DNA of 23,430 nucleotides from a virus (lineage: Duplodnaviria; Heunggongvirae; Uroviricota; Caudoviricetes). Positions 1,126-11,251 of this stretch are shown here, one piece after another. How positions within the stretch are numbered: position 1 is the first letter of the stretch; each line of letters begins with the position of its first letter. The notes below the pieces were generated by a model. That model was given only the letters and a program-made list of their open reading frames with translations, was not told the DNA's origin and did not search any database. Where the stretch lies: the IMG/VR virus record IMGVR_UViG_2671181100_000007, positions 1 through 23,430 of that record; one strand, 5' to 3'. Position numbers and translations under genes: made by a program.

Positions 1126-1518
1126 TTATATGACAGGGCATTCGTCATCAGTAGGCCAAGCTCGATTGATGACGAATGTCACCACCCCGACAACTGTAAC
1201 ATCATCCAAAGCCTCGCCTTCCAGAGCCTCACCGTCTCTTGTAATGAATGCCCGGCCCATAATTTTTGCAAAATCAGTGCCGCCGCCGTATTGAATTAAA
1301 ACGGTATCTCCTTGCTTTGGTTTACCGGAGACATCGACTACGGTGTAACCAGTTTCTGTCTGAACGAGCCTGGTATTTGGGCCGGTACCGCAGAGTTTAT
1401 CGACGGTCAGTCGTACTTCTACATAGTCTGCTGCTGGCGACGGAAATCCCACGTTATAGCCCTCCGTTCGGGTTGTATAACTGGAACGTGCGCTCATCGC
1501 CTTCCTGCGTTGAGACAT
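1126..1518 (-). CDS. UmuD/LexA-like S24 peptidase-fold protein, orphan (no umuC/polV gene downstream); start codon uncertain (ATG 1518 or 1497)
   Basis: 130-aa ORF with about 23 residues preceding GFPSPAADYVE, the hallmark block that follows the self-cleavage site in UmuD/LexA-family proteins. A Lys candidate is present (DFAKIM); the Ser nucleophile position appears to be Thr (TGYTV versus UmuD SGDSM). Confidence 0.5.
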   Translation of the reverse strand: MSQRRKAMSARSSYTTRTEGYNVGFPSPAADYVEVRLTVDKLCGTGPNTRLVQTETGYTVVDVSGKPKQGDTVLIQYGGGTDFAKIMGRAFITRDGEALEGEALDDVTVVGVVTFVINRAWPTDDECPVI

Positions 1519-1693
1519 CCCGGAATGTCGTCACATAGTGCTCTATCCACTGGTTAGCCTGGCGTGGCGACCAGTGCCAGTTAACTTTTGCGAGTTCCCG
1601 GATAAAACCGGACGTTGTCACGGTGCGGCGGCCATTAGGCTCAATGACCATTGCCTGACGCCAGGCTATTTCGATATCTGAGTTTCGCGGCAT
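1454..1693 (-). CDS. Hypothetical 79-aa protein, first ORF of the LexA-box-controlled cassette; overlaps the UmuD-like ORF by 65 nt in another frame (possible frameshifted single gene)
   Basis: ATG at 1693 preceded by a strong SD (AAGGAGGTG, 7-nt spacer); LexA box 2 nt upstream of the SD; no recognisable family. Confidence 0.5.
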   Translation of the reverse strand: MPRNSDIEIAWRQAMVIEPNGRRTVTTSGFIRELAKVNWHWSPRQANQWIEHYVTTFRDVSTQEGDERTFQLYNPNGGL

Positions 1694-1730: not shown

Positions 1731-1802
1731 GATTTAATGAGGGATCTGATCAATACAGGTTACAGCTATCGATCAGACGCACCGACGCAACGCAATGATT
1801 TT

Positions 1803-1868
1803 AAGAGGCGGGCAGGTACTTGTAGGCTGTCTTCACCTTTCCCCTCATCACACTCCTGCTGACGATTG
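1803..1868. repeat. Decayed copy (D) of the serine-invertase 3'-terminal coding sequence; direct repeat of 4295-4365
   Basis: About 65 bp alignable to the invertase 3' end (GGTACTTGTAG..TGT.TTCAC); reverse strand translates ...VKTAYKYLPAS* versus invertase ...VKTIYKYLPAT*. Confidence 0.5.
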
Positions 1869-1903
1869 GACCTCCTTTCCTCATGGTGAAGTAGTAACCG
1901 CAT

Positions 1904-1932
1904 AAAAAAAGGCACCTATTAGGTGCCTTTTT
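1904..1932. terminator. Bidirectional rho-independent terminator
   Basis: A7 - GGCACCT ATT AGGTGCC - T5: perfect 7-bp GC-rich stem flanked by an A-run and a T-run. Confidence 0.7.
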
Positions 1933-2212
1933 AATATACTTTCTTAGCAACGAACCAAGAAAGCCCAAGCCTCGTAGCCATAATCATGCGCATCAAGGAC
2001 TTTTGCGGACTTCCCGCGAACCTTACGGTAGCGACAGAAGACCCAGCGGAATCCCTTCGGAGCCGCTTTTGAAACAACTGACTTTAAACCCATCCATAAA
2101 CACCTCCTTACCGAGAGAGATTTTTCCTTGAACCTACTCTCCCGAAGTGTTATGTTCGGGTTGCTTATAGAGAAGTTCACGGTGCGATGCCTCTTGGTAT
2201 CATCGCCTAGTT

Positions 2213-2250
2213 AAACCCTGATGGTTGGCGCCGTCAGGGTTTTACTTTTT
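2213..2250 (+). terminator. Intrinsic terminator hairpin (strong on plus strand, weak on minus strand just after the ImmA stop)
   Basis: AACCCTGA-N12-TCAGGGTT followed by TTTACTTTTTT on the plus strand. Confidence 0.5.
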
Positions 2251-2770
2251 TAATAACTGTTTTTGATAATCTGCTGCGTGTGCAGAAACCCCACACGCTT
2301 CAGCTATTTCTTCTACAGACATGCCTCTTAGTAGAGCTGCATGGCTGTAGGGGACGAGCAACTCTCCACTAAAGCACTTTGCCTGCCACTCGCTGCTTTC
2401 AAAAGCTCGAATTTCCACTCCTGGCTCAGCTCGAGCAAAAGCAATATTTTTATGCATTAGTAGATGTCCAATCTCATGAGCAACCGTCATACGATCACGC
2501 CCGTTTCCTTCATGAGCTCCCTCATAAACATCTTCACGAAGGATGATAAGCGAGTCCTGAGGCATAGTTAGCCCATGTGTCCCCCCCCATCTCCTTTTCA
2601 GAAGCTGTTTCAAACGAAAAGTTAGGTAAGATCTGCGGTAGTGCGAACTCCAGCATTTCAATTACGGGAAAATACAAATCATGTATTTTCAGCATCGAGC
2701 GTAATTTGCTTGTTAAACCACGCACCGCGTTGCGGCTTAAAGGTGGTACTCGATAATCTTGTCCGCTCAA
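2242..2770 (-). CDS. ImmA/IrrE-family zinc metallopeptidase (HEIGH motif), reading frame split at a C8/G8 homopolymer (2581-2588); intact only if the tract is 7 nt
   Basis: TTG start at 2770 with AGGAGG SD gives the N-terminal 78 codons; the C-terminal 139-codon ORF (2242-2661) contains TVAHEIGHLLMH (HExxH). The two frames join if one G is removed from the G8 run (minus-strand GAG ATG GGG GGG ACA CAT ... reads EMGGTHGLTMPQ). Confidence 0.7.
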
Positions 2771-2784
2771 ACAGAGCCTCCTAC

Positions 2785-3144
2785 TTATTGTTTTTTAGTT
2801 AACAATTCACGTAGACGTTTAAACTCATCATCACTTAATTCATCGAAATTACGTGCAAATGCCATCGCTACTTCACGAGCATTTTGATTCTTACCCGATA
2901 GATTAATCTCAACAGATTGTTGAGAATCACGCGCCGCTTTTGTTAACTCATCTCCTGCATGAACGCCTTCATTAGTGAAATAGCTAATGATACTTTTCAA
3001 TACAGGATCGGTTACAGCCCGCTTTCCTGTTTCAATTGCTGAGAGGTAAGACGAGGTCACGCCCATAGCATCAGCCATGCTTTTCAGCGTGACACCGACG
3101 TCTATACGTAATTTCCTTACTTTCTTACCAAACGGCGTTAACAT
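2785..3144 (-). CDS. XRE-family helix-turn-helix transcriptional regulator (ImmR-like partner of the metallopeptidase)
   Basis: 119 aa; N-terminal block VRKLRIDVGVTLKSMADAMGVTSSYLSAIETGKR fits the Cro/C1-type HTH pattern; ATG at 3144 with AGAGG SD; stop 12 nt upstream of the ImmA start (operon). Confidence 0.8.
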   Translation of the reverse strand: MLTPFGKKVRKLRIDVGVTLKSMADAMGVTSSYLSAIETGKRAVTDPVLKSIISYFTNEGVHAGDELTKAARDSQQSVEINLSGKNQNAREVAMAFARNFDELSDDEFKRLRELLTKKQ

Positions 3145-3520
3145 ATTTTTGCCTCTCTAATGTGCGTGAGAGTCAGGTACAACTCGACTCTGAGTGCAAG
3201 ATAACAAGCCGCAGATGAAAAATCAACTGATTTCTGTTAATTTTTGCATCGAGCTTTAGTTCATCAATGTAGACAGATGATAGTTCATATTGTTCTACTT
3301 AGCTTGCCAGAGAATGCTAAAAGTACTTGCGATATCCCATTACTCATTGATGTATATAGATACAAGTACCTTGCGACATCGGAAATGGAGCAGCTTCAGC
3401 GTTATGAAAGCTGCTCCACGGGATTTCTGGGGGCGTATAATCAAGGCTCTGAAGTTATAGCAAATTGCTCATCTGAGGGCTCTGGCATACAGTTCGCAGG
3501 TGAGCAAACTTAACCGGCTG

Positions 3521-3568
3521 GAAAATATTTATAAATCGTCTTCACCCCCTCCTATTACATCGGCTACC
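3521..3568. repeat. Decayed copy (A) of the invertase 3'-end sequence
   Basis: AAATCGTCTTCACCCC...ACATCGGC; reverse strand reads ..VADVIGGGEDDL*; about 80% identical to copy B. Confidence 0.5.
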
Positions 3569-3794: not shown

Positions 3795-4217
3795 TTAGTC
3801 CGGTATGTTTCTCGCGCTACTACTGCTTACGTTAACGTCTGGTAATGATCTAGCGGCGCGACGTAAAGCGGCGTTGAAAGCAATTATAGTGACCGGCCGG
3901 CGTTGGTACTTCACACGGTTAGAATGGCTCTGAAATAAAAAAACATCTTCTGGATAGCGTTCTCTTCTACGAGCAATGATCCCCTCCACTGGAGGGGTTG
4001 ATTCAACACGTAGCTCTTTCAGGTGATCCTGTTTTCGTATCAGTATCAAGCCATCATCAATATCATCATATCGAATACTCAGCAGCCTTCCAGCGCTTAA
4101 ACCTGTGTGAAAAATTAACGCCCACAAGTCTGCCCATGTATCCGAGATGGAAACAAGATTGCTGTTAATAGTTAAAAATTGTTCAAAACTTATTGTTTTC
4201 TTACCGTTCACGAACAA
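3795..4217 (-). pseudogene. Tyrosine-recombinase-like fragment (FimB/FimE/Xer-type catalytic-domain N-terminal half; lacks the HxxR and Tyr region); TTG start, no SD
   Basis: 140-aa ORF with HTGLSAGRLLSIRYDDIDDGLILIRKQ resembling the first conserved box of tyrosine recombinases (TGxRxSELxxLxxxDID); ends before any H-x-x-R ... Y motif. Confidence 0.4.
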
Positions 4218-4294: not shown

Positions 4295-4842
4295 TCAAGT
4301 CGCCGGGAGGTACTTGTAGATTGTTTTCACGTCCACGCCTGTCACATCAGCCACCTGCTGCCGGGTAGCGCCAGTACCCAACATCCTGCGGCATCGCTCC
4401 ACAACCTCAGTGGTCATTACCCGCCGGCGGCCACCAATACACCCTGCTCTCTCGCCGCCACCAGGCCTGCGCGGGTCCTCTCCACAATCAGCTCTCGTTC
4501 CATCTCTACCAGCGCGCTCATGACGTGGAAGAAGAAGCGGCCGGCGGCCGTGCTGGTATCGATGCTATCGGTCAGGCTTCGGAAATTTACCCCGCGGGCC
4601 TGCAGCTCCGAGACCAGAGTGATTAAGTCGCGCACGCTGCGCCCCAGCCGATCCCGTTTCCAGACCACCAGCACATCGCCCGGGCGGAGCCGCCGTAAGG
4701 CGCGCTTTAACCCTGGCCGCCGGGCATTTTTCCCGCTGGCCATATCCTCAAAAACCAGCTCACATTCTGCGCGGAGCAGCGCGTTTTTCTGTAAATCGAG
4801 GTTTTGATCCCCGGTGGATACCCTCGCATAGCCAATCAGCAC
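4295..4842 (-). CDS. Serine DNA invertase (Gin/Pin/Hin/Cin family); frameshifted near 4436-4440 (catalytic domain ORF 4417-4842; C-terminal HTH continues in another frame to TGA at 4295-4297)
   Basis: GTG start with AGGAG SD; MLIGYARVSTGDQNLDLQ...VVWKRDRLGRS...SLTDSIDTSTAAGRFFFHVMSALVEMEREL is near-collinear with Mu Gin as recalled, including the catalytic Ser in RVSTGDQ. The shifted frame after codon ~135 reads IGGRRRVMTTEVVERCRRMLGTGATRQQVADVTGVDVKTIYKYLPAT (HTH domain). Confidence 0.85.
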
Positions 4843-4885: not shown

Positions 4886-4939
4886 TTCGCTCAAACCCTC
4901 GTTTGAGCGAACGCCTTTTTTGGAGCAAAAAACATGGCC
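4886..4939. repeat. Left inverted repeat (54 bp) containing a 26-bp gix/hix-like crossover site TTCGCTCAAACC-CT-CGTTTGAGCGAA (4886-4911), plus the RBS and ATGGCC start of the SGNH tail-fibre gene
   Basis: 53/54 identical to the reverse complement of 11198-11251; site has the Hin/Gin-type architecture (12-bp imperfect inverted half-sites with AAACC/GGTTT cores around a 2-bp centre). Confidence 0.75.
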
Positions 4940-6880
4940 TTTAACCCGGAGCTGGGGAGCACGTCTCCCGCTGTGTTGCTCGATAACGCCGAGCGCCTGG
5001 ATAAGCTGGTCAATGGGGATGCGGCCACCGTTCCCGACCGGGCCGGACAACCGCTGGACTCCTGGCGTCTTATGCTGCAGACCTTCGCTGCTGTTGTCGA
5101 AAATACCCGCCAGAACCTGATCCCACTTGGCAAGCAATACCAGAGTGTGGAAGAGGCTCAGGCTGATATTGCCAGTATTCCAGAAGGTGCCACCACCTAT
5201 GCACGCAGTCCGGATGATTCTGCTCTGGCGATCGAATACCGAAATGTCTCCGGGACGCTGACGGAAACCGGGCGCAGGATGCCATCACAGAGCTCTGTCG
5301 ACGCAGTTATCCAGTTTATCGATGAGTTTATTGCCAGTGGGGCTGTCAGTGGTGACTTCTTCCCTTTCTTTGTCGATGGGGCCGGGAACGTGCCTGTGTA
5401 CTGGGATAACGGTTTTGCGGTTTCCCGGATTGCCGCATCGTTGTATCAGATGATCTATGAGGATGTTCATGCGCGGCTGGGGGATGCGTTGAATGTGCAG
5501 GTAACAGGGGTTTCCCCTCTGTTTTTCCCGTTATTCATGGACAGCGCCGGCAATGTACCGGTGTACTGGAATGGTGGGCTGGATGCGTCGGCAATTGCGA
5601 CGGGGCTGCTGGAAAAAATATGGGCTTATATCAACGATATCATCGCCAGCGCGCTTAACCAGAATGTCCCTCTGGTTTCCCCTGGTTTTGTACCAGGGAT
5701 GATGGATGCCGCCGGAAACGTCCCGTTCTGGTTCCAGGATGGCGAGCTTGATGCGACGGGCATCGGGCCAAACATCAGGGGAATTTTTGCAAGATGGTAT
5801 CAGCGGCGTATGTACACCGCTGCTTACAACATTCCTCTGCATACCGACGGGCGAACTCTGTGGCGCTGGAAAGCGAAGAAAGCTCAGCTCAAAGCTGGCC
5901 TTGCAACCCGGCCACACTTCATGCTGACGGGTGACAGCTGGACGCAGAATAACGAACTGGCGACCGCTATCGCCGGGCTGCTGCATGATGATTATGGTGA
6001 TGCCGGTCTTGGCTGGCGCACGGTTAACTACGGAGCGGCACGCGATGGCTCGAATATCAACCGCTCTGCAGGGTGGAATTTGTATGACTCATCGCCGACA
6101 AGTGGTGCGCCGCTGTACGGCTGCGGAATTGATGGTCAGTCAGTCAATACGACCATGGCGACCGACTATTTCAGGGTGACGAATGTCCGCTGCACGGACT
6201 ACCGTATTTACTACCAGGATTTGAACGGGCGTTTCCAGTACGGCTACGACGCTGGCGGGATCACTCAGTGGACAGAGGTTGTCTGCGGGAATACCGGCAC
6301 GACAAAATCGGTGTTGCTGACAGGCATGGCCGACGAGGTCAGAACCATATACATCAAAACCGATGGCAACACGGGGCGTGTCGCTATCCACGGGTTTTAT
6401 CTGTGGCGCAGCGGCGTTGCGGGGTGTGTGATGAGCAAGGCGGGGAATTCCGGGATTCTTGCCGATCAGTTCCTGCTGTTCTCCGACAAAATCGCAGAGT
6501 ACCTGAGCACAATGCAGCCTGACGTGATTGCGATTGTCATCGGGAATAACGATTACAGGATTTCTGAATCGACAGCCACATTCCGTACTGCTCTGCAAAC
6601 GTACATTGCTGCCTGTCGCGCCGTGCTCCCTGATGTGAGCTTTATTCTGATGGCACCACCCCGCACGAACGGAACAGCAATAACGCCCATCGTTGATTTC
6701 CGTGATGTCATGTACGACCTGTCACAGACGCTGAATGTCGAGTTTTTCAGCATCTATGACCTTTTCGACTCCTGGGCTGAAATGAACAGCCTCGGCTGCT
6801 TTCTCGATAACCTGCACCCGAATGCTACGGGCAGCAACCTGGTCGCAACGTCACTCTACAATGCACTGATTAAAGGCTAA
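4934..6880 (+). CDS. Tail fibre/tailspike protein (648 aa): shared N-terminal anchor domain, three tandem ~55-aa repeats, C-terminal SGNH/GDSL hydrolase (esterase) domain
   Basis: N-terminal ~115 aa homologous to the N-terminus of the 1113-aa fibre. Repeats FPFFVDGAGNVPVYWDNG / FPLFMDSAGNVPVYWNGG / VPGMMDAAGNVPFWFQDG. SGNH blocks: MLTGDSWTQ (GDS), VIGNNDY (GxND), DNLHPN (DxxH). Confidence 0.8.
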   Translation: MAFNPELGSTSPAVLLDNAERLDKLVNGDAATVPDRAGQPLDSWRLMLQTFAAVVENTRQNLIPLGKQYQSVEEAQADIASIPEGATTYARSPDDSALAIEYRNVSGTLTETGRRMPSQSSVDAVIQFIDEFIASGAVSGDFFPFFVDGAGNVPVYWDNGFAVSRIAASLYQMIYEDVHARLGDALNVQVTGVSPLFFPLFMDSAGNVPVYWNGGLDASAIATGLLEKIWAYINDIIASALNQNVPLVSPGFVPGMMDAAGNVPFWFQDGELDATGIGPNIRGIFARWYQRRMYTAAYNIPLHTDGRTLWRWKAKKAQLKAGLATRPHFMLTGDSWTQNNELATAIAGLLHDDYGDAGLGWRTVNYGAARDGSNINRSAGWNLYDSSPTSGAPLYGCGIDGQSVNTTMATDYFRVTNVRCTDYRIYYQDLNGRFQYGYDAGGITQWTEVVCGNTGTTKSVLLTGMADEVRTIYIKTDGNTGRVAIHGFYLWRSGVAGCVMSKAGNSGILADQFLLFSDKIAEYLSTMQPDVIAIVIGNNDYRISESTATFRTALQTYIAACRAVLPDVSFILMAPPRTNGTAITPIVDFRDVMYDLSQTLNVEFFSIYDLFDSWAEMNSLGCFLDNLHPNATGSNLVATSLYNALIKG

Positions 6881-6886
6881 TTTCTT

Positions 6887-7687
6887 ATGAACAATATCTA
6901 TATCCCAAAACTCGGTGACGTCGTAATTCCGGGAACTCATCCGAAAAAAGGGCATTTCATGCAGCCGGATTTACCTGTTATCGCAGGGTTGAAAGCGATG
7001 TACATCCACGGCGGAACCTTAGAGCTGAGCATGAGAAACCGTGCCGACAACACCGCTCCACTGACCAAAGTCGGTTCGCCATCGATCCAGGCTGATTTCG
7101 GGGCGGTCTGTAGTTTCGGTAACTGTTTTGATACCGGGAAAGTTTCTACCAAAAACCAGACCCATATCGTGATCTGTAAGCCGGTAAAACCAACGGCGGC
7201 TACCGAAACCCAGCAGGCCTTCATGATGGGTAACTACAGCTATTCCGGCTCACCGGCAGTGTATCGCGGCGACGGACTCGCTTTTCTGTTTTCCGGGCAA
7301 AGTCTTTACGGGGCCTTTGTAGAGGACAATAACGTCACGCCAACGAACATGATCAACTACTACAGCGCGGCATACGACACAACGAAGTGGGCCGCTTTTG
7401 TGGAGCTGGTTGATGGTGACAATGGGATTGCCAGGATTGCTGCCAGGCAGGGAGGACCGCTTAACTGGCAGAACTCGAAAGCGTTGGTCAACCGAACCGC
7501 TTATACCGACCGCACGATCCGGATAGGTTCGCATCATGCGCCCGCTGCATACCCTGCAGGCGCTGCCATTACGATGGGGATGGAGCTGATTTTCGAGACA
7601 GCGCTGACACAGGCGCAGGTTGCTTCCGTTCTCGACAGTATAAGTGCCTATCTCAGTTCGGCATGGGGAATTACCGATTTAGGTTAA
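6887..7687 (+). CDS. Hypothetical protein co-encoded 6 nt downstream of the SGNH fibre gene (possible fibre-associated accessory or second receptor-binding subunit)
   Basis: 266-aa ORF, same strand and cassette as the fibre gene; no recognisable catalytic motif; weak SD. Confidence 0.45.
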   Translation: MNNIYIPKLGDVVIPGTHPKKGHFMQPDLPVIAGLKAMYIHGGTLELSMRNRADNTAPLTKVGSPSIQADFGAVCSFGNCFDTGKVSTKNQTHIVICKPVKPTAATETQQAFMMGNYSYSGSPAVYRGDGLAFLFSGQSLYGAFVEDNNVTPTNMINYYSAAYDTTKWAAFVELVDGDNGIARIAARQGGPLNWQNSKALVNRTAYTDRTIRIGSHHAPAAYPAGAAITMGMELIFETALTQAQVASVLDSISAYLSSAWGITDLG

Positions 7688-7723
7688 ATATATACGTTAC
7701 TGATTACCAGACGGGCAGGTAGA

Positions 7724-7798
7724 GAAAAAATCCCCCTGAGCAGGCACACTCAGGGGGAAAGTACTGCATAACATCATTGCTGTGTGCGTCTTTGCGCG
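7724..7798 (-). repeat. IR2 right copy; contains minus-strand intrinsic terminator (hairpin 7731-7758, U-run from 7725-7730) downstream of the 1113-aa fibre gene
   Basis: TCCCCCTGAG-N8-CTCAGGGGGA with A6 on the plus strand (T6 on minus); about 74 bp inverted identity to 3639-3712. Confidence 0.65.
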
Positions 7799-7861
7799 CA
7801 GCATATTTTCAGAGAAAACCTCCATCGTTTCCAGATGTTTCTTACTATTTCAGACTGTGTA

Positions 7862-10800
7862 CTAACCCTGGTTGTAAAAAAGCCACAAATCAGACAACGT
7901 TGACGCCACAAAACTGATCTCTGACAGCGTGTCTCCCGCAGCATTCGTGCCGTCGAATCCAAAGAACCGTTTAGGGAAGCCAGGCTTTGGCCCGTACTGC
8001 GTTTTCAGTTTATCCAGCAGACTGCCCGCTGCCGATAACGCTGATGGCCGGTCTGAAAAAAACAGCGGCAGCAGCGCAAAGGTGATGGTATTGGCAGCAC
8101 CCCGGCGGCTTTCGGAAATGCAAAAATCCACCTCCTTAAACGCCCCCATTCCGCTGGTCGCGGACAGAATGAAATTAACCAGGTCAAAGGCCGGTTTACG
8201 GTCCAGCAGTCTGCAGGCTAACAGATAGTTGTTAACGGCATAGCTGGCGTAGTGCAGGTACATCGCCCGGCTCGGGTATTCCGTCGCTGCATCCTGCAGA
8301 ATTCCTTCCGCCTTCATAAACTGGTTACGGTCCGTCAGCAGCGCCTCAACAGCATTAAAGGCTGTCAGGTAATGCCCGCTGCTGTCCTGCCCGGTATAAA
8401 TCCCCAGCGCCAGCGCCCGCAGTCCCGTGGCATTGGCATTACTGGCACCAATCCCGGTGGCTGTGCCAGCAATCTGAATACCGCCGTTGGCGGCCCAGTA
8501 CGTATAGACGGCATCCGCCAGGCTTTTTATCCCCGCCTTCAGCTCGGTAATTTTGGCCGGGTCACCCGCCTTCACCGCCATTTTGTAGAGCCACTCGTAA
8601 CAGGGAATGCTCAGACGCGACTGAAACTGCAGCCCCCACCACCCGCCGGTATACGCGGCCCCCGGATTGATGATGGAGCCCTTATCCAGTGCCATGTAAT
8701 TTTTAAAGGTGGCGTACACCGTATCCAGATCACCGGTGCCATAACGGGCCAGCAGGAAAATGTCCGCCGGTACACAATAAAATGCCGGATATTCCAGTTT
8801 ACCTTCACCGTTGATGAATGGCATGCCACCGCCATATTGGCGGGCGTCTTCCGATTTCCACCACTCCACTGAACCGCGAATATGGCAGGCCATTTTTTCC
8901 AGCAGATCCTGACGGATAACGCCCGCATAACCACAGTCACCCGCAAATCCTACCGGGCGGTTAAGTGCCTGGCTGTTAATGAGGGCATTCGTGGCATTCG
9001 ACGCCGCCGCTGTCACACTGTTATCGCAGTCAATCCACAGCTCGTGTGTCCAGGTCCAGCCTTTTTTCACCGGCCAGTTCAGGAACGAATAATCGGTAAT
9101 ATTCGATGAACCATACCGCCATCCGGCATCAATGCGGGTGTACGCTGCCCCGTCGGGTACCAGCGCCGTACCGCGAACCGGACGGTTTGGCCCGTAGGTT
9201 GGCCCGTCCCGGTGAACGTCTCCGTTTGCATAGACCAGCGCCGCCGTAAAGCGTTTACCCGTTGTGGCATCGGTAAAGTAAGCCAGCGCACGGGAGGTGT
9301 CGTAGGTGTACACTCCGTCGTTAAGCAGAAGTCGGGAGTACACCCCGAACAGCACGCCAACGGGAATATCCTGCATCGCCGTATTCATGACACGGACAGA
9401 AACCTTCCCGTTTCTGAACAGACGGTACCGGACTGTTGCCATCAGGGCGCCCTCTGCCAGCGTGTTTCCGGCCCGGTTACGTACCGTCATTTCCAGCTCG
9501 GTAAAGACCGGCCCTGTGTTCACCAGCCGGATGGATGCCCCCAGAATAAGCCGCTCATCCACCGCCACCCCGGCAACCACCTGGCTGTAATAGCAGCCGT
9601 GTGTAATGTTATGAACAATACCCGCCGGGTCGGTAATGCTGGTCAGGGCAAATCCCTGCTGGCGTAAAAAGGTGTATTTGTACCCGCTGACCGTCACGCT
9701 GTAACCGTCGGCAGTCTTCACCAGCTGCGGCCAGGAGCCAGAGGCCAGATCAGTCCGGCGACGGTTCCAGGCTTTCACCTCGTAATACTTCTGCGCACCA
9801 CTGGACAGCGAATCCAGAATGAAAACAGACCCTGCCGCCAGGGAGCCATCCGCGTGATAGCTGATATTCGACTTCTGACGCGGGTTAACATGGATATCAT
9901 CAGCAAACTGGGCATCAAACGTATTACCGTCAGTATCTGTCACCAGCAGGGCATCGGAATCCGGGACGTCACCGGGTGAGAAACTGACCCTGATTTCTAC
10001 CGGATAATTAACGTACCCGGCTGAAAGGGTATTTTTGACGTCCGTACCTTTTCGCTGATAGTTACCCACCCGCACCGATCGCACCACTTTACGCCGCCAG
10101 ACGGCATAACTTCCTGCCGGAAGGACAGCCAGACCGGATGTGGTGAAGCCTTCAGTGCTGACGGTATAGTCACCGGCAGGCAACAGGGCTTTGAAATAAT
10201 CCTCAAACCCGGTCTGTGCGATAGTGGTATCGTACGCCGCATATCCGGCAAACAGGCAATCCGGAGCAATAGTTTTCAGGTAGTCTCCCACCGTGGCGGC
10301 AGTAAAGCCCGCAGCAGTCAGCTCTGCCAGGGTGACCACAAACTGAATGGCATTCGCAATTGCCGTACCCGAAATGGACTTCCTCGTCACCGACGTGACC
10401 AGTCCGGCCTGAGCGGGGGCGAATTTCCCGGTTAAGTCCAGCGCGATATAGTTTGAACCGGCCACCGGGACGCCGAAGCCAGCAGGCAGGTCATAGCGCA
10501 CCCGGACCAGCGTTGCGGTGGTTTCCAGAATGCCCACATACTTCAGGTCCCGGAACCGGAAGAGGCGATAGGCTGACCAGAATTTTCCCTGAGCGTACTG
10601 CGTCTTTGTTCCCGGCAGTACAAAGGCCATCACTTCAGAACCCGCTGAAGAAAATACCAGCCGACTGTAAACCGTGTTCACATCCGACGTTGTCGCCAGG
10701 GTACGCAGTTCAATTACTGAATCTTCCGGTAGCATCAGCGCAGGGTCGTCCAGCAGCTTTAACCCTGTCAGATCCTGGTAGTCGCCATATTGTCGCTTAA

Positions 10801-11203
10801 TACCTTCCCGGTCTGTCAGCGTCGCTGTATATGCCAGCCCCGCTTCAACCCCTTCCTGCGAGAGCATTTTCCGCCCCGTGGCCGTTAGTGTCCCTGCCAC
10901 GTTCATATACTCTGTAGCCAGCGCGCTGCCGTCCTGGCTGCGCACGTAGGTTGTGGCGTTCACAGGGATATTCGCGATATCTGCCTGCGCTGCCGTCAGG
11001 GTCATGTACTGCTTACTGAGCGGGATGATGTTCTGCCGAATTTCGTCATTCTTTGCCATCATCTGGCGCCAGGTATCGAGCGGTTCGCCTGCGCGGTCGT
11101 TAACCGTTCCGGCCGGACCGTTAACCAGCTCGTCAGCGCGCTTGACGTTATCCAGGAATATTTCAGGCGTCGTCGTTCCCAAAGGCGGGTTAAGTTCGGC
11201 CAT
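7862..11203 (-). CDS. Tail fibre/tailspike protein (1113 aa) with shared N-terminal anchor domain and large unassigned C-terminal region (candidate receptor-binding or polysaccharide-degrading domain); the cassette currently in the expressed orientation
   Basis: ATGGCC start inside the right IR, 23 bp after the gix-like site; same strand as the upstream tail operon; N-terminal ~115 aa homologous to the 4934 ORF. Confidence 0.8.
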   Translation of the reverse strand: MAELNPPLGTTTPEIFLDNVKRADELVNGPAGTVNDRAGEPLDTWRQMMAKNDEIRQNIIPLSKQYMTLTAAQADIANIPVNATTYVRSQDGSALATEYMNVAGTLTATGRKMLSQEGVEAGLAYTATLTDREGIKRQYGDYQDLTGLKLLDDPALMLPEDSVIELRTLATTSDVNTVYSRLVFSSAGSEVMAFVLPGTKTQYAQGKFWSAYRLFRFRDLKYVGILETTATLVRVRYDLPAGFGVPVAGSNYIALDLTGKFAPAQAGLVTSVTRKSISGTAIANAIQFVVTLAELTAAGFTAATVGDYLKTIAPDCLFAGYAAYDTTIAQTGFEDYFKALLPAGDYTVSTEGFTTSGLAVLPAGSYAVWRRKVVRSVRVGNYQRKGTDVKNTLSAGYVNYPVEIRVSFSPGDVPDSDALLVTDTDGNTFDAQFADDIHVNPRQKSNISYHADGSLAAGSVFILDSLSSGAQKYYEVKAWNRRRTDLASGSWPQLVKTADGYSVTVSGYKYTFLRQQGFALTSITDPAGIVHNITHGCYYSQVVAGVAVDERLILGASIRLVNTGPVFTELEMTVRNRAGNTLAEGALMATVRYRLFRNGKVSVRVMNTAMQDIPVGVLFGVYSRLLLNDGVYTYDTSRALAYFTDATTGKRFTAALVYANGDVHRDGPTYGPNRPVRGTALVPDGAAYTRIDAGWRYGSSNITDYSFLNWPVKKGWTWTHELWIDCDNSVTAAASNATNALINSQALNRPVGFAGDCGYAGVIRQDLLEKMACHIRGSVEWWKSEDARQYGGGMPFINGEGKLEYPAFYCVPADIFLLARYGTGDLDTVYATFKNYMALDKGSIINPGAAYTGGWWGLQFQSRLSIPCYEWLYKMAVKAGDPAKITELKAGIKSLADAVYTYWAANGGIQIAGTATGIGASNANATGLRALALGIYTGQDSSGHYLTAFNAVEALLTDRNQFMKAEGILQDAATEYPSRAMYLHYASYAVNNYLLACRLLDRKPAFDLVNFILSATSGMGAFKEVDFCISESRRGAANTITFALLPLFFSDRPSALSAAGSLLDKLKTQYGPKPGFPKRFFGFDGTNAAGDTLSEISFVASTLSDLWLFYNQG

Positions 11204-11251
11204 GTTTTTTGCTCCAAAAAAGGCGTTCGCCCAAACGAGGGTTTGAGCGAA
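11198..11251. repeat. Right inverted repeat (54 bp) containing gix/hix-like site (11226-11251; minus strand TTCGCTCAAACC-CT-CGTTTGGGCGAA)
   Basis: Inverted copy of 4886-4939 with one mismatch; lies between the J-like gene stop (11280) and the fibre start (11203). Confidence 0.75.

Follow-up and report, generated by a model that had tools for sequence, protein, structure and literature searches.

The 23,430-nucleotide (nt) window analyzed here, corresponding to the IMG/VR virus record IMGVR_UViG_2671181100_000007 (Caudoviricetes), carries at one end of a prophage an accessory operon that codes for an XRE-family repressor, a metallopeptidase of the ImmA/IrrE type (family M78) and a 49-amino-acid (aa) protein, hereafter p49, and in the peptidase gene of this operon a single additional guanine in a guanine run breaks the reading frame. 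Taking the observations together, we consider it likely that a heritable slippage from seven to eight guanines (G7 to G8) broke the peptidase of a prophage accessory operon and that the cassette is, as a consequence, locked in the repressed state. The comparison of sequences suggests that the G8 state is best read as a stable, slippage-generated loss-of-function allele and not as a demonstrated switch. An earlier inspection of the letters of this DNA, here called the sequence-only reading, had offered three explanations for the interrupted gene, namely a phase-variable switch, a fixed pseudogene and a homopolymer sequencing error.

Interruption of the peptidase gene at a homopolymer

All coordinates follow the numbering of the 23.4-kb window, and the genes of the cassette are read on the minus strand. 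The XRE gene (2785–3144, minus strand) is intact and encodes a 119-aa helix-turn-helix (HTH) repressor, recognized by Pfam HTH_3 (37.3 bits, cut-off 23) and by the PADLOC capH profile (E = 1.9e-9). Its stop codon is separated by 14 nt (GTAGGAGGCTCTGT) from the start of the N-terminal frame of the peptidase (2534–2770, minus strand), which begins with a TTG codon at 2770, has a GGAGG Shine-Dalgarno (SD) sequence and gives a 78-aa product. In this frame, residues 1–63 are authentic and are followed by the homopolymer, C8 on the plus strand and G8 in gene sense (2581–2588, one base more than the wild-type G7), by 15 out-of-frame residues and by a stop codon. The C-terminal part of the peptidase, with the HEIGH zinc site of the metallopeptidase domain and an HTH-like helical region at its C-terminus, lies past the tract in the +1 frame (2242–2580, minus strand) and stops at 2242. 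When the tract was set to 7 or 10 bases, a single 175-aa open reading frame (ORF) was obtained, whereas 6, 8 or 9 bases gave none; G7, which in the wild type encodes Met-Gly-Gly (ATG GGG GGG), is in frame, and G5, G6, G8 and G9 are out of frame. The peptidase coding sequence of the window is not uninterrupted, and its products are 78 aa and, only if translated, 107 aa long.

Most of this architecture had been anticipated by the sequence-only reading, which recognized the pair of XRE regulator and ImmA/IrrE metallopeptidase, the TTG start with its strong SD sequence, and the split exactly at the homopolymer, from which a 7-base tract would give a protein of about 175 aa; tract replacement yielded this protein, and the relatives encode the ~175-aa form. 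The gap of 12 nt that it gave between the two genes has to be corrected to the 14 nt measured here, while its description of the module as lower in guanine plus cytosine (GC) content holds, since we measured 41.6–43.4% against 47–58% around it, 5–15 percentage points below the surroundings.

The C8 tract is the sole G/C run of at least 7 bases in the window. By our estimate, a G/C 8-mer is expected by chance roughly 0.4 times in 23 kb and its occurrence is not improbable; what makes the tract notable is its exact coincidence with the point where the frame changes in a gene whose relatives are intact.

The repaired protein matches Pfam PF06114 (Peptidase_M78) with 40.7 bits (cut-off 22). Its zinc ligands (His98, Glu99 and His102) and the downstream Glu127, in the motif SEWQA, are invariant in alignments of 31 and 42 sequences, and residues Arg17, Arg24, Pro35, Glu41 and Met61 of the N-terminal part are conserved family-wide. 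The AlphaFold model of the intact peptidase has a predicted local distance difference test (pLDDT) score of 93.5, and its top Foldseek matches are CapP (7t5t, E = 8e-5) and IrrE (3dti, E = 7e-4), with template modeling (TM) scores of about 0.55–0.58 over 175 residues; the PprI/IrrE structure 8sln is also among the best structural matches, over the whole length, and CapP 7t5t is the only PDB relative that was detected by sequence. In this model, residues 1–63 form two helices and strand β1, and the frameshift, at residue 63/64, falls between β1 (52–56) and β2 (66–69) of the catalytic domain. Judging from the model, neither fragment should fold as an active enzyme.

The frameshift might nevertheless be bypassed, by transcriptional slippage, by +1 frameshifting at GGG_GGG_G or if the two fragments, of 78 aa and 107 aa, assembled with each other, and the cassette would then be functional at reduced dosage. 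The tract does provide identical codons with which tRNA-Gly could re-pair after a +1 shift, the ORFs of 78 and 107 aa overlap by 32 nt, where coupling is conceivable, and the remaining cassette is intact. On the other hand, there is no stimulatory element, since the codon that comes next is GAC, which is common, neither a rare codon nor a stop is present, and no structure is conserved downstream; an SD sequence is not evident at the internal ATG, the break lies within the β-sheet of the catalytic domain, and G8 is a rare, derived state that orthologues do not share. We regard such a bypass as very unlikely.

Wild-type state and heritability of the G8 allele

G7 is the wild-type state. The exact XRE protein is present in 4,662 index blocks, mostly of Klebsiella pneumoniae by the names of the sources, and in the 10 loci sampled through it the tract is always G7 and the peptidase an intact 175-aa protein (two shorter gene calls among the 10 are start-codon choices, not lesions). 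The nearest G7 haplotype has 3 differences to the window in 1.85 kb, namely two single-nucleotide polymorphisms (SNPs) and the indel. Intact full-length homologues of the peptidase were identified in Enterobacterales, Aeromonas, Vibrio, Clostridia, Spirochaetes and Bacillales. The gene order is equally conserved: in all 27 loci compared, from several phyla, a specific XRE homologue directly precedes the peptidase, and such a gene is adjacent in 66 of 68 viral loci, the remaining two being cut by contig ends. The intact genes are under strong purifying selection, with ratios of nonsynonymous to synonymous substitution rates (dN/dS) of 0.028 (peptidase), 0.052 (XRE) and 0.036 (p49).

Homopolymers are classic error sites and, with a G7 haplotype so close, the extra base could be regarded as a sequencing or assembly error in a genome that is truly G7. 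However, at least 10 independent records, which come from separate projects and pipelines, have the same G8, and the exact 78-aa product is encoded on 23 contigs of independent samples (ENA, NCBI and Logan), including high-coverage SPAdes contigs at 144x and 312x; the split products also appear in NCBI records (KXG58903.1 and KXG58904.1), and contigs of GCA_001575545.1 and GCA_012379775.1 agree with the window without a difference over 13.9 kb. Since a look-up by the G8 product is circular, loci were re-sampled through an unrelated neighbouring gene product, the 648-aa tail-spike protein, and in this sample, which is unbiased for the tract, G8 was present in 5 of 5 module-bearing loci. All sampled G8 copies share one identical 1.85-kb haplotype, while their chromosomal flanks clearly differ, by up to 78 of 4,587 nt (up to 2%), which excludes one shared erroneous reference. 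The explanation by error is thus effectively refuted and, because an identical haplotype sits beside differing chromosomal flanks, the G8 allele is heritable and unchanged across several distinct Escherichia coli backgrounds.

Tract alleles and the question of a switch

Tract alleles other than that of the window were deduced from truncated protein products, in a 90%-identity cluster of N-terminal fragments. Among the listed contigs, about 1,660 are intact and about 41 are tract variants, so that roughly 2–3% are variants and ~97% are G7; these counts are approximate, as they cover part of the cluster and miss pseudogenes annotated without a protein. The variants comprise a G5 allele (77 aa, "MGDTW…" product), a G6 allele (66 aa, "MGGHMG*" product, on 12 contigs), G8 alleles with four different out-of-frame tails, which represent different SNP backgrounds, and a G9 allele (67 aa, "MGGGHMG*" product). 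These alleles occur on several SNP backgrounds, in Klebsiella and E. coli. We also identified other lesions of the peptidase gene beside an intact XRE gene: a +1 insertion that turns ATG into ATGG shortly ahead of HEIGH, in a Logan contig with 99% identity (L002:1175-1703), a TAG nonsense codon in an IMG/VR contig (L205:339-899) and a split peptidase ORF in an Acutalibacteraceae metagenome-assembled genome (L065:4980-5494). Tract indels exceed the other lesions of this gene in number, which include those of L002 and L205 and a few more, and, because they concentrate in only 7 of the 528 nt of the gene, the tract is a genuine slippage hotspot.

The G run is limited to the Klebsiella-type clade. 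Orthologues with the same Met-Gly-Gly-Thr use GGTGGC, GGAGGA, GGTGGT, GGCGGC or GGGGGA, and the second Gly of the Gly-Gly pair is variable among orthologues. Searches of further collections added few copies. Megablast of the module against 5,426 complete E. coli genomes gave no match, and a distant-mode search of the same set recovered 13 genomes with most of a 69%-identical intact cassette; since only such cassettes were recovered there, this set gives no tract statistics. No match was obtained in the plasmid collection, and the phage collection gave one unannotated phage with 67% identity. Scans with DNA patterns recovered only 5 further loci in the viral and metagenome collections and no locus in species-representative genomes.

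A phase-variable contingency locus, in which G7 (ON) and G8 (OFF) would interchange reversibly and at high frequency, so that the cassette could be induced in some cells only, would account for several of these observations: known poly-G switches include runs of this length, the G5, G6, G8 and G9 alleles are present on several SNP backgrounds, and most disruptions of the gene in the clade are tract indels. The distribution of the alleles argues against it. OFF alleles are rare, the G8 haplotype has neither G7 nor G9 in any sampled copy in spite of flanks up to 2% apart, and the run is not kept across orthologues, which have interrupted Gly codons at the same place; in addition, some of the singleton alleles may be homopolymer assembly errors. 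In Campylobacter jejuni, G8 tracts switch at about 2–7 × 10^-4 per generation, and mismatch repair affects their mutability. The enterobacterial hosts of the cassette are mismatch-repair-proficient, and such tracts are expected to be much more stable there than in Campylobacter. At Campylobacter-like rates, the uniformity of the G8 lineage would be unexpected. On these sequence comparisons, phase variation appears unlikely.

With regard to the three explanations of the sequence-only reading, the fixed pseudogene is the best supported, since G8 is uniform on its haplotype and G7 is intact in the relatives, whereas the sequencing error falls away in view of the many independent assemblies and several E. 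coli backgrounds. The switch has on its side a tract that sets the frame, and it is in mild conflict with the non-repetitive orthologues, with the ~97% of close relatives that are G7 and with G8 copies that are all G8. The comparison of orthologues, which that reading had proposed as a check, gave an intact non-repetitive sequence outside the clade and rare tract-length variants within the Klebsiella-type clade.

Promoter, operator and proposed mechanism

Upstream of the XRE gene we identified a putative autoregulated promoter/operator of the cassette (3198–3245, minus strand), defined by an inverted repeat and by conservation. The inverted repeat is an imperfect palindrome, AAATTAAC-N8-GTTGATTT, at 3218–3245, whose right half-site contains a -35 hexamer, TTGATT (3226–3221), followed by a 17-nt spacer and a -10 hexamer, TATCTT (3203–3198). 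An operator-like layout of the same kind, made up of the palindrome consensus AAATCAAC-N8-GTTGATTT, TTGATT, a 17-nt spacing and a TAT-like -10, is found in the same place ahead of the XRE gene in Klebsiella, Yersinia, Morganella, Aeromonas, Escherichia sp. and several viral contigs. A palindrome over the -35 hexamer is the layout of an autorepressed promoter, and we infer this putative function from the sequence.

We hypothesize that an XRE dimer, bound to the palindrome that overlaps its own -35 hexamer, keeps the operon low. On a signal, which by analogy with ImmA, IrrE and CapP may be DNA damage or infection, the peptidase would cleave XRE, the operon would be derepressed and p49 would be made, its translation being further gated by a structured leader that would sequester the ribosome-binding site. 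In the window, G8 would make the peptidase null: as the protein is cut between β1 and β2, the repressor should be uncleavable and the cassette locked in a repressed, uninducible state.

The p49 gene and a conserved structured element

Downstream of the peptidase, where the sequence-only reading had seen no obvious regulated cargo, we found a conserved structured element of ~155 nt (2090–2246, minus strand), between the peptidase stop codon and p49, and the p49 gene itself (1944–2093, minus strand), which encodes a 49-aa basic protein (MGLKSVVSKAAPKGFRWVFCRYRKVRGKSAKVLDAHDYGYEAWAFLVRC). A terminator hairpin with flanking A- and T-runs (AAAAAGGCACCTATTAGGTGCCTTTTT, 1906–1932), 11 nt past the p49 stop, is likely the end of the operon. 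The p49 gene follows the peptidase in four loci of Gammaproteobacteria and, in about 73 of the 78 viral loci found through p49, an M78 peptidase is directly upstream, nearly always with XRE; in three of the four remaining p49 loci, defence-like ATPase or HNH-type genes are upstream instead. This linkage suggests that p49 is likely the regulated output of the cassette. The AlphaFold model of p49 (pLDDT 89) is a small β-sheet fold, for which a search of the PDB gave no match. The protein is a member of phrog_33859, whose function is not annotated, and p49, as well as the 79-aa and 140-aa proteins encoded elsewhere at this prophage end, has no Pfam, NCBIfam or PADLOC family. A cassette of Paenibacillus has a 56-aa gene with a core motif like that of p49.

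The structured element is composed of hairpin T (loop GGCGCCAAC), hairpin H1, the long helix P2 (TAACAC loop) and hairpin P3, which encloses the SD sequence of p49; its conserved loops are GGCGCCAAC, A-CC-AGAGG and TAACAC. Separate folds of divergent sequences give the same architecture. With MAFFT and RNAalifold alone only 2 helices were recovered, as stem lengths vary, and the sequences were hence realigned with a covariance model. In each of 47 loci this model has a single hit, which in every case directly follows the stop codon of the peptidase (examples beyond the window are L119:6535-6701, L131:889-1052 and L045:5535-5688, with 43 more loci). Paired cells amount to 87.4%, against 42–52% in slid controls, and 38 of 48 pairs have compensatory changes, a covariation that none of 500 shuffles reaches; realignment with the covariance model biases these pair counts toward the model. 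At E ≤ 1, Rfam 15 gave no hit on the element, in the window and in six divergent loci.

By counting of wobble pairs, the SD hairpin is sense-specific, and folding energies do not discriminate between the strands of the element. The first hairpin resembles a terminator for antisense transcription, and an antisense RNA may end at it. Two candidates in this region were rejected: the hairpin after the peptidase stop as a terminator of the operon, since it has no T-run on the sense strand and is terminator-like on the antisense strand only, and TTGAAC/TTGAAT, a -35-like intergenic sequence, as a promoter of p49, since it is one arm of helix P2.

The presence of a third gene and a leader element bears on another explanation of the module. 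Comparative genomics had led to the prediction that XRE-COG2856 pairs are toxin-antitoxin systems, and in Brucella one pair was studied in this role (PMC2701414; PMC10538038), so that the pair described here could be a type II toxin-antitoxin-like module with an XRE antitoxin and a COG2856 protease toxin, in which the frameshift would be the loss of the toxin first. The antitoxin-first gene order and the apparently autoregulated promoter are in line with this proposal, and it is the peptidase and not XRE that is repeatedly hit (G8, G6, the +1 insertion in L002 and the nonsense codon in L205). Nevertheless, the best-characterised relatives (ImmA, IrrE and CapP) are regulators that cleave repressors, and a toxin role would be assigned here by analogy; the conserved third gene and the leader element suggest a regulated output and not a two-gene addiction module, purifying selection on the peptidase is strong, and ~97% of its copies are intact. 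We consider that the toxin-antitoxin proposal has a low, though not negligible, probability.

Position of the cassette in the prophage

Bases 1–933 of the window correspond to yfdC, 99% identical to that of E. coli, and from about 4.9 kb onward come genes of a siphovirus-type prophage for the tail spike, host specificity (J-like) and the tape measure. The module occupies the very end of the prophage, with the tail-spike/invertase region on one side and the chromosome junction on the other. In E. coli Ec42 (L003), flanks with 92–96% identity enclose an unrelated stretch of 330 bp in place of the 1.77-kb segment at about 1777–3550, which delimits a mobile cargo cassette (1777–3550, minus strand) composed of the promoter region, XRE, peptidase, structured element and p49. 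In three loci with the same tail region (L024, L027 and L032), umuDC-like genes take the place of the cassette. The cassette also occupies different positions in other hosts: Yersinia has it outside of the integrase gene, Aeromonas in the nin-like region of a lambdoid prophage with an S24 CI repressor of its own, and Paenibacillus after the holin-lysin genes. On the basis of these locations, we describe the module as a mobile cargo cassette and not as the master switch of the prophage.

A true ImmR/ImmA master immunity switch, in which the frameshift would lock the prophage as non-inducible and domesticated, has in its favour the immR-immA gene order, the control of induction of phi105 and ICEBs1 by ImmA-type proteases, and the presence of a second pseudogene, that of the invertase, close by. 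The cassette is, however, beside the chromosome junction and is not flanked by the genes for integration and replication, it is missing from homologous prophage ends or replaced there by umuDC-like genes, its slots in Yersinia, Aeromonas (in a prophage with an S24 CI repressor) and Paenibacillus are those of cargo, and several backgrounds of E. coli carry the prophage with G8. A master switch seems improbable to us; the ImmR/ImmA-like arrangement perceived by the sequence-only reading stands as far as gene order and adjacency are concerned, and fails in its location, in a cargo slot and not in a lysis-lysogeny switch.

Several neighbouring features were observed. The slot without the cassette in E. 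coli Ec42 (L003:7778-8108) has a short hydrophobic ORF (MSQTDLLIVVFTLGILAFGYSIWFISNRILCSIFHRLTKNI), possibly a small membrane peptide. Between the cassette and yfdC, two genes (1126–1518 and 1454–1693, minus strand) encode a UmuD/HumD-like protein (phrog_3469, with no obvious catalytic Ser/Lys and far below the cut-off of NCBIfam HumD) and a 79-aa phage protein (phrog_3893); at the equivalent end, the sister prophages L024, L027 and L032 have a full umuD-umuC-like pair. A 140-aa ORF (3795–4217, minus strand; phrog_19751) weakly resembles tyrosine integrases in their catalytic domain (PF00589, E = 0.024; phrog_1, E = 1e-8) and is conserved in this prophage group, being either an integrase remnant or a small stand-alone family. 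Around Klebsiella copies of the cassette, we noticed a gene for a 495-aa reverse transcriptase (RVT_1), probably of a group II intron, just downstream of the peptidase (L012:7797-9284), and a DDE transposase with a beta-lactamase gene just upstream of the cassette (L009:2394-4787).

The DNA invertase gene (Resolvase and HTH_7; 4295–4842, minus strand) has a 1-nt deletion, with no homopolymer, which splits it into a 141-aa product and a 40-aa HTH ORF. The 141-aa product was called in several independent assemblies, and L016 and L017 carry an intact 182-aa allele, 86% identical. This inherited frameshift, about 1.8 kb from the tract, fits a local decay of the prophage end. The adjacent 6.3-kb invertible segment (4886–11251) is bounded by 54-nt inverted repeats (4886–4939 and 11198–11251, 98% complementary), which include the ribosome-binding site and the first codons of two alternative tail-spike genes, one of 648 aa (4934–6880, plus strand) and the other of 1113 aa (11203–7862, minus strand), whose N-termini are common to both. 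The segment is in the opposite orientation in L028 (GCA_052207375.1), and by its sequence we assign it as a whole-gene tail-spike switch.

Strength and implications of the proposed reading

Some points weigh against a heritable loss of the peptidase that locks the cassette. Tract lengths were read from assemblies alone, and mixtures of G7 and G8 within cultures are possible. The rest of the G8-lineage cassette is undamaged, with XRE, RNA element and p49 identical to the Klebsiella copies, and therefore either the event is recent or the remainder is still useful. Low-level restoration of the peptidase, by transcriptional slippage, by +1 frameshifting on GGG_GGG_G or by reinitiation at the internal ATG, may be conceivable. 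The regulatory circuit is proposed by analogy with ImmR/ImmA, DdrO/IrrE and CapH/CapP and from the layout of the sequence, and for helices 1–5 of the structured element, in contrast to the SD hairpin, wobble pairs do not settle the strand.

The frameshift as such is an ordinary loss-of-function allele of a known kind of gene, while p49 and the structured element appear to be undescribed. Of the two-gene modules of mobile elements that still await an explanation, XRE-M78 pairs belong to the most common, their output is seldom known, and the linkage of p49 to the covarying element gives a concrete candidate output for this subfamily. We would tentatively go further, to a proposal that we see as a real possibility, although not yet the favoured one, that the cassette represents a widespread undescribed cargo operon in which XRE and a protease without GAF domain, of the M78 family, control a 49-aa protein through a new RNA of ~155 nt; the operon would be inducible, possibly with an anti-phage or host-modulating function, and its G run would yield heritable uninducible variants. 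The natural protease-null alleles (G8, G6 and nonsense), in near-identical backgrounds, are usable for comparison. As a worked example, the case also shows that comparing populations is by itself enough to separate a homopolymer frameshift from an error of sequencing and from a contingency locus.

Comparison with known systems

In Bacillus, the ImmA protease of ICEBs1 and of phage phi105 cleaves the repressor and so derepresses its element. As in these ImmR/ImmA systems, an HTH repressor gene is here followed by a near-abutting, co-oriented gene for a HExxH peptidase of COG2856/M78 with ~170 aa, and the resemblance extends to size, gene order and predicted autoregulation; the relatedness to Bacillus ImmA is known here from shared Pfam family membership alone. 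Unlike ImmR/ImmA, the pair is cargo in variable prophage slots, and not a central switch beside int/xis, and it is followed by a conserved structured element and a 49-aa gene.

Several of the features of poly-G/C contingency loci of Campylobacter, Neisseria and Haemophilus are also present, namely an intragenic run of 7–8 G that sets the frame and length polymorphism in the population. The tract differs from those loci in that it is not conserved in orthologues, its OFF state amounts to ~2–3% and the G8 lineage has no variation.

The XRE-COG2856 toxin-antitoxin pairs and RmrA of RosmerTA, a fused XRE and M78 protein, have the same domain pair. The matches to them are weaker (PADLOC RmrA, E 5e-8; NCBIfam spr1629 repressor/antitoxin, E 9e-7, far below the cut-off) and cover the HExxH core (~85–145) only; in contrast to RosmerTA, the cassette codes for separate small proteins and has no RmrT-like toxin gene.

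IrrE (PprI) of Deinococcus cleaves an XRE repressor, has a GAF domain, is chromosomal and unlinked to the regulon of the repressor, and controls DNA-repair genes. The pair described here shares with IrrE/DdrO the combination of M78 peptidase and XRE repressor, and 3dti and 8sln are among the top structural matches, but its peptidase has no GAF domain and is directly linked to XRE on a prophage.

The best profile matches were obtained with CapH/CapP (PADLOC capP, E = 1.9e-12, and capH as given above; PADLOC is used here without curated cut-offs), and the HExxH motif is in the same register, at residues 98–102 here and 96–100 in CapP. CapP carries a GAF domain at its C-terminus, a third of cases also have a cysteine-switch loop, and single-stranded DNA activates the protein. 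The peptidase of the cassette, in contrast, has 175 aa, covers positions 10–146 of the 242 of the capP profile only and has no GAF domain; in fact, its model ends after the HTH-like helices, and the TM score normalised to the target is only 0.37. PADLOC gave no hit on the neighbours of the cassette, with no CBASS (anti-phage signaling based on cyclic oligonucleotides) or other known defence operon adjacent, and the contexts consist of p49 and phage genes. CapH/CapP respond to DNA damage and regulate CBASS as well as further defence operons. By analogy with these systems, the peptidase seems to be a minimal, ImmA-sized and GAF-less member of the ImmA/CapP-like group.

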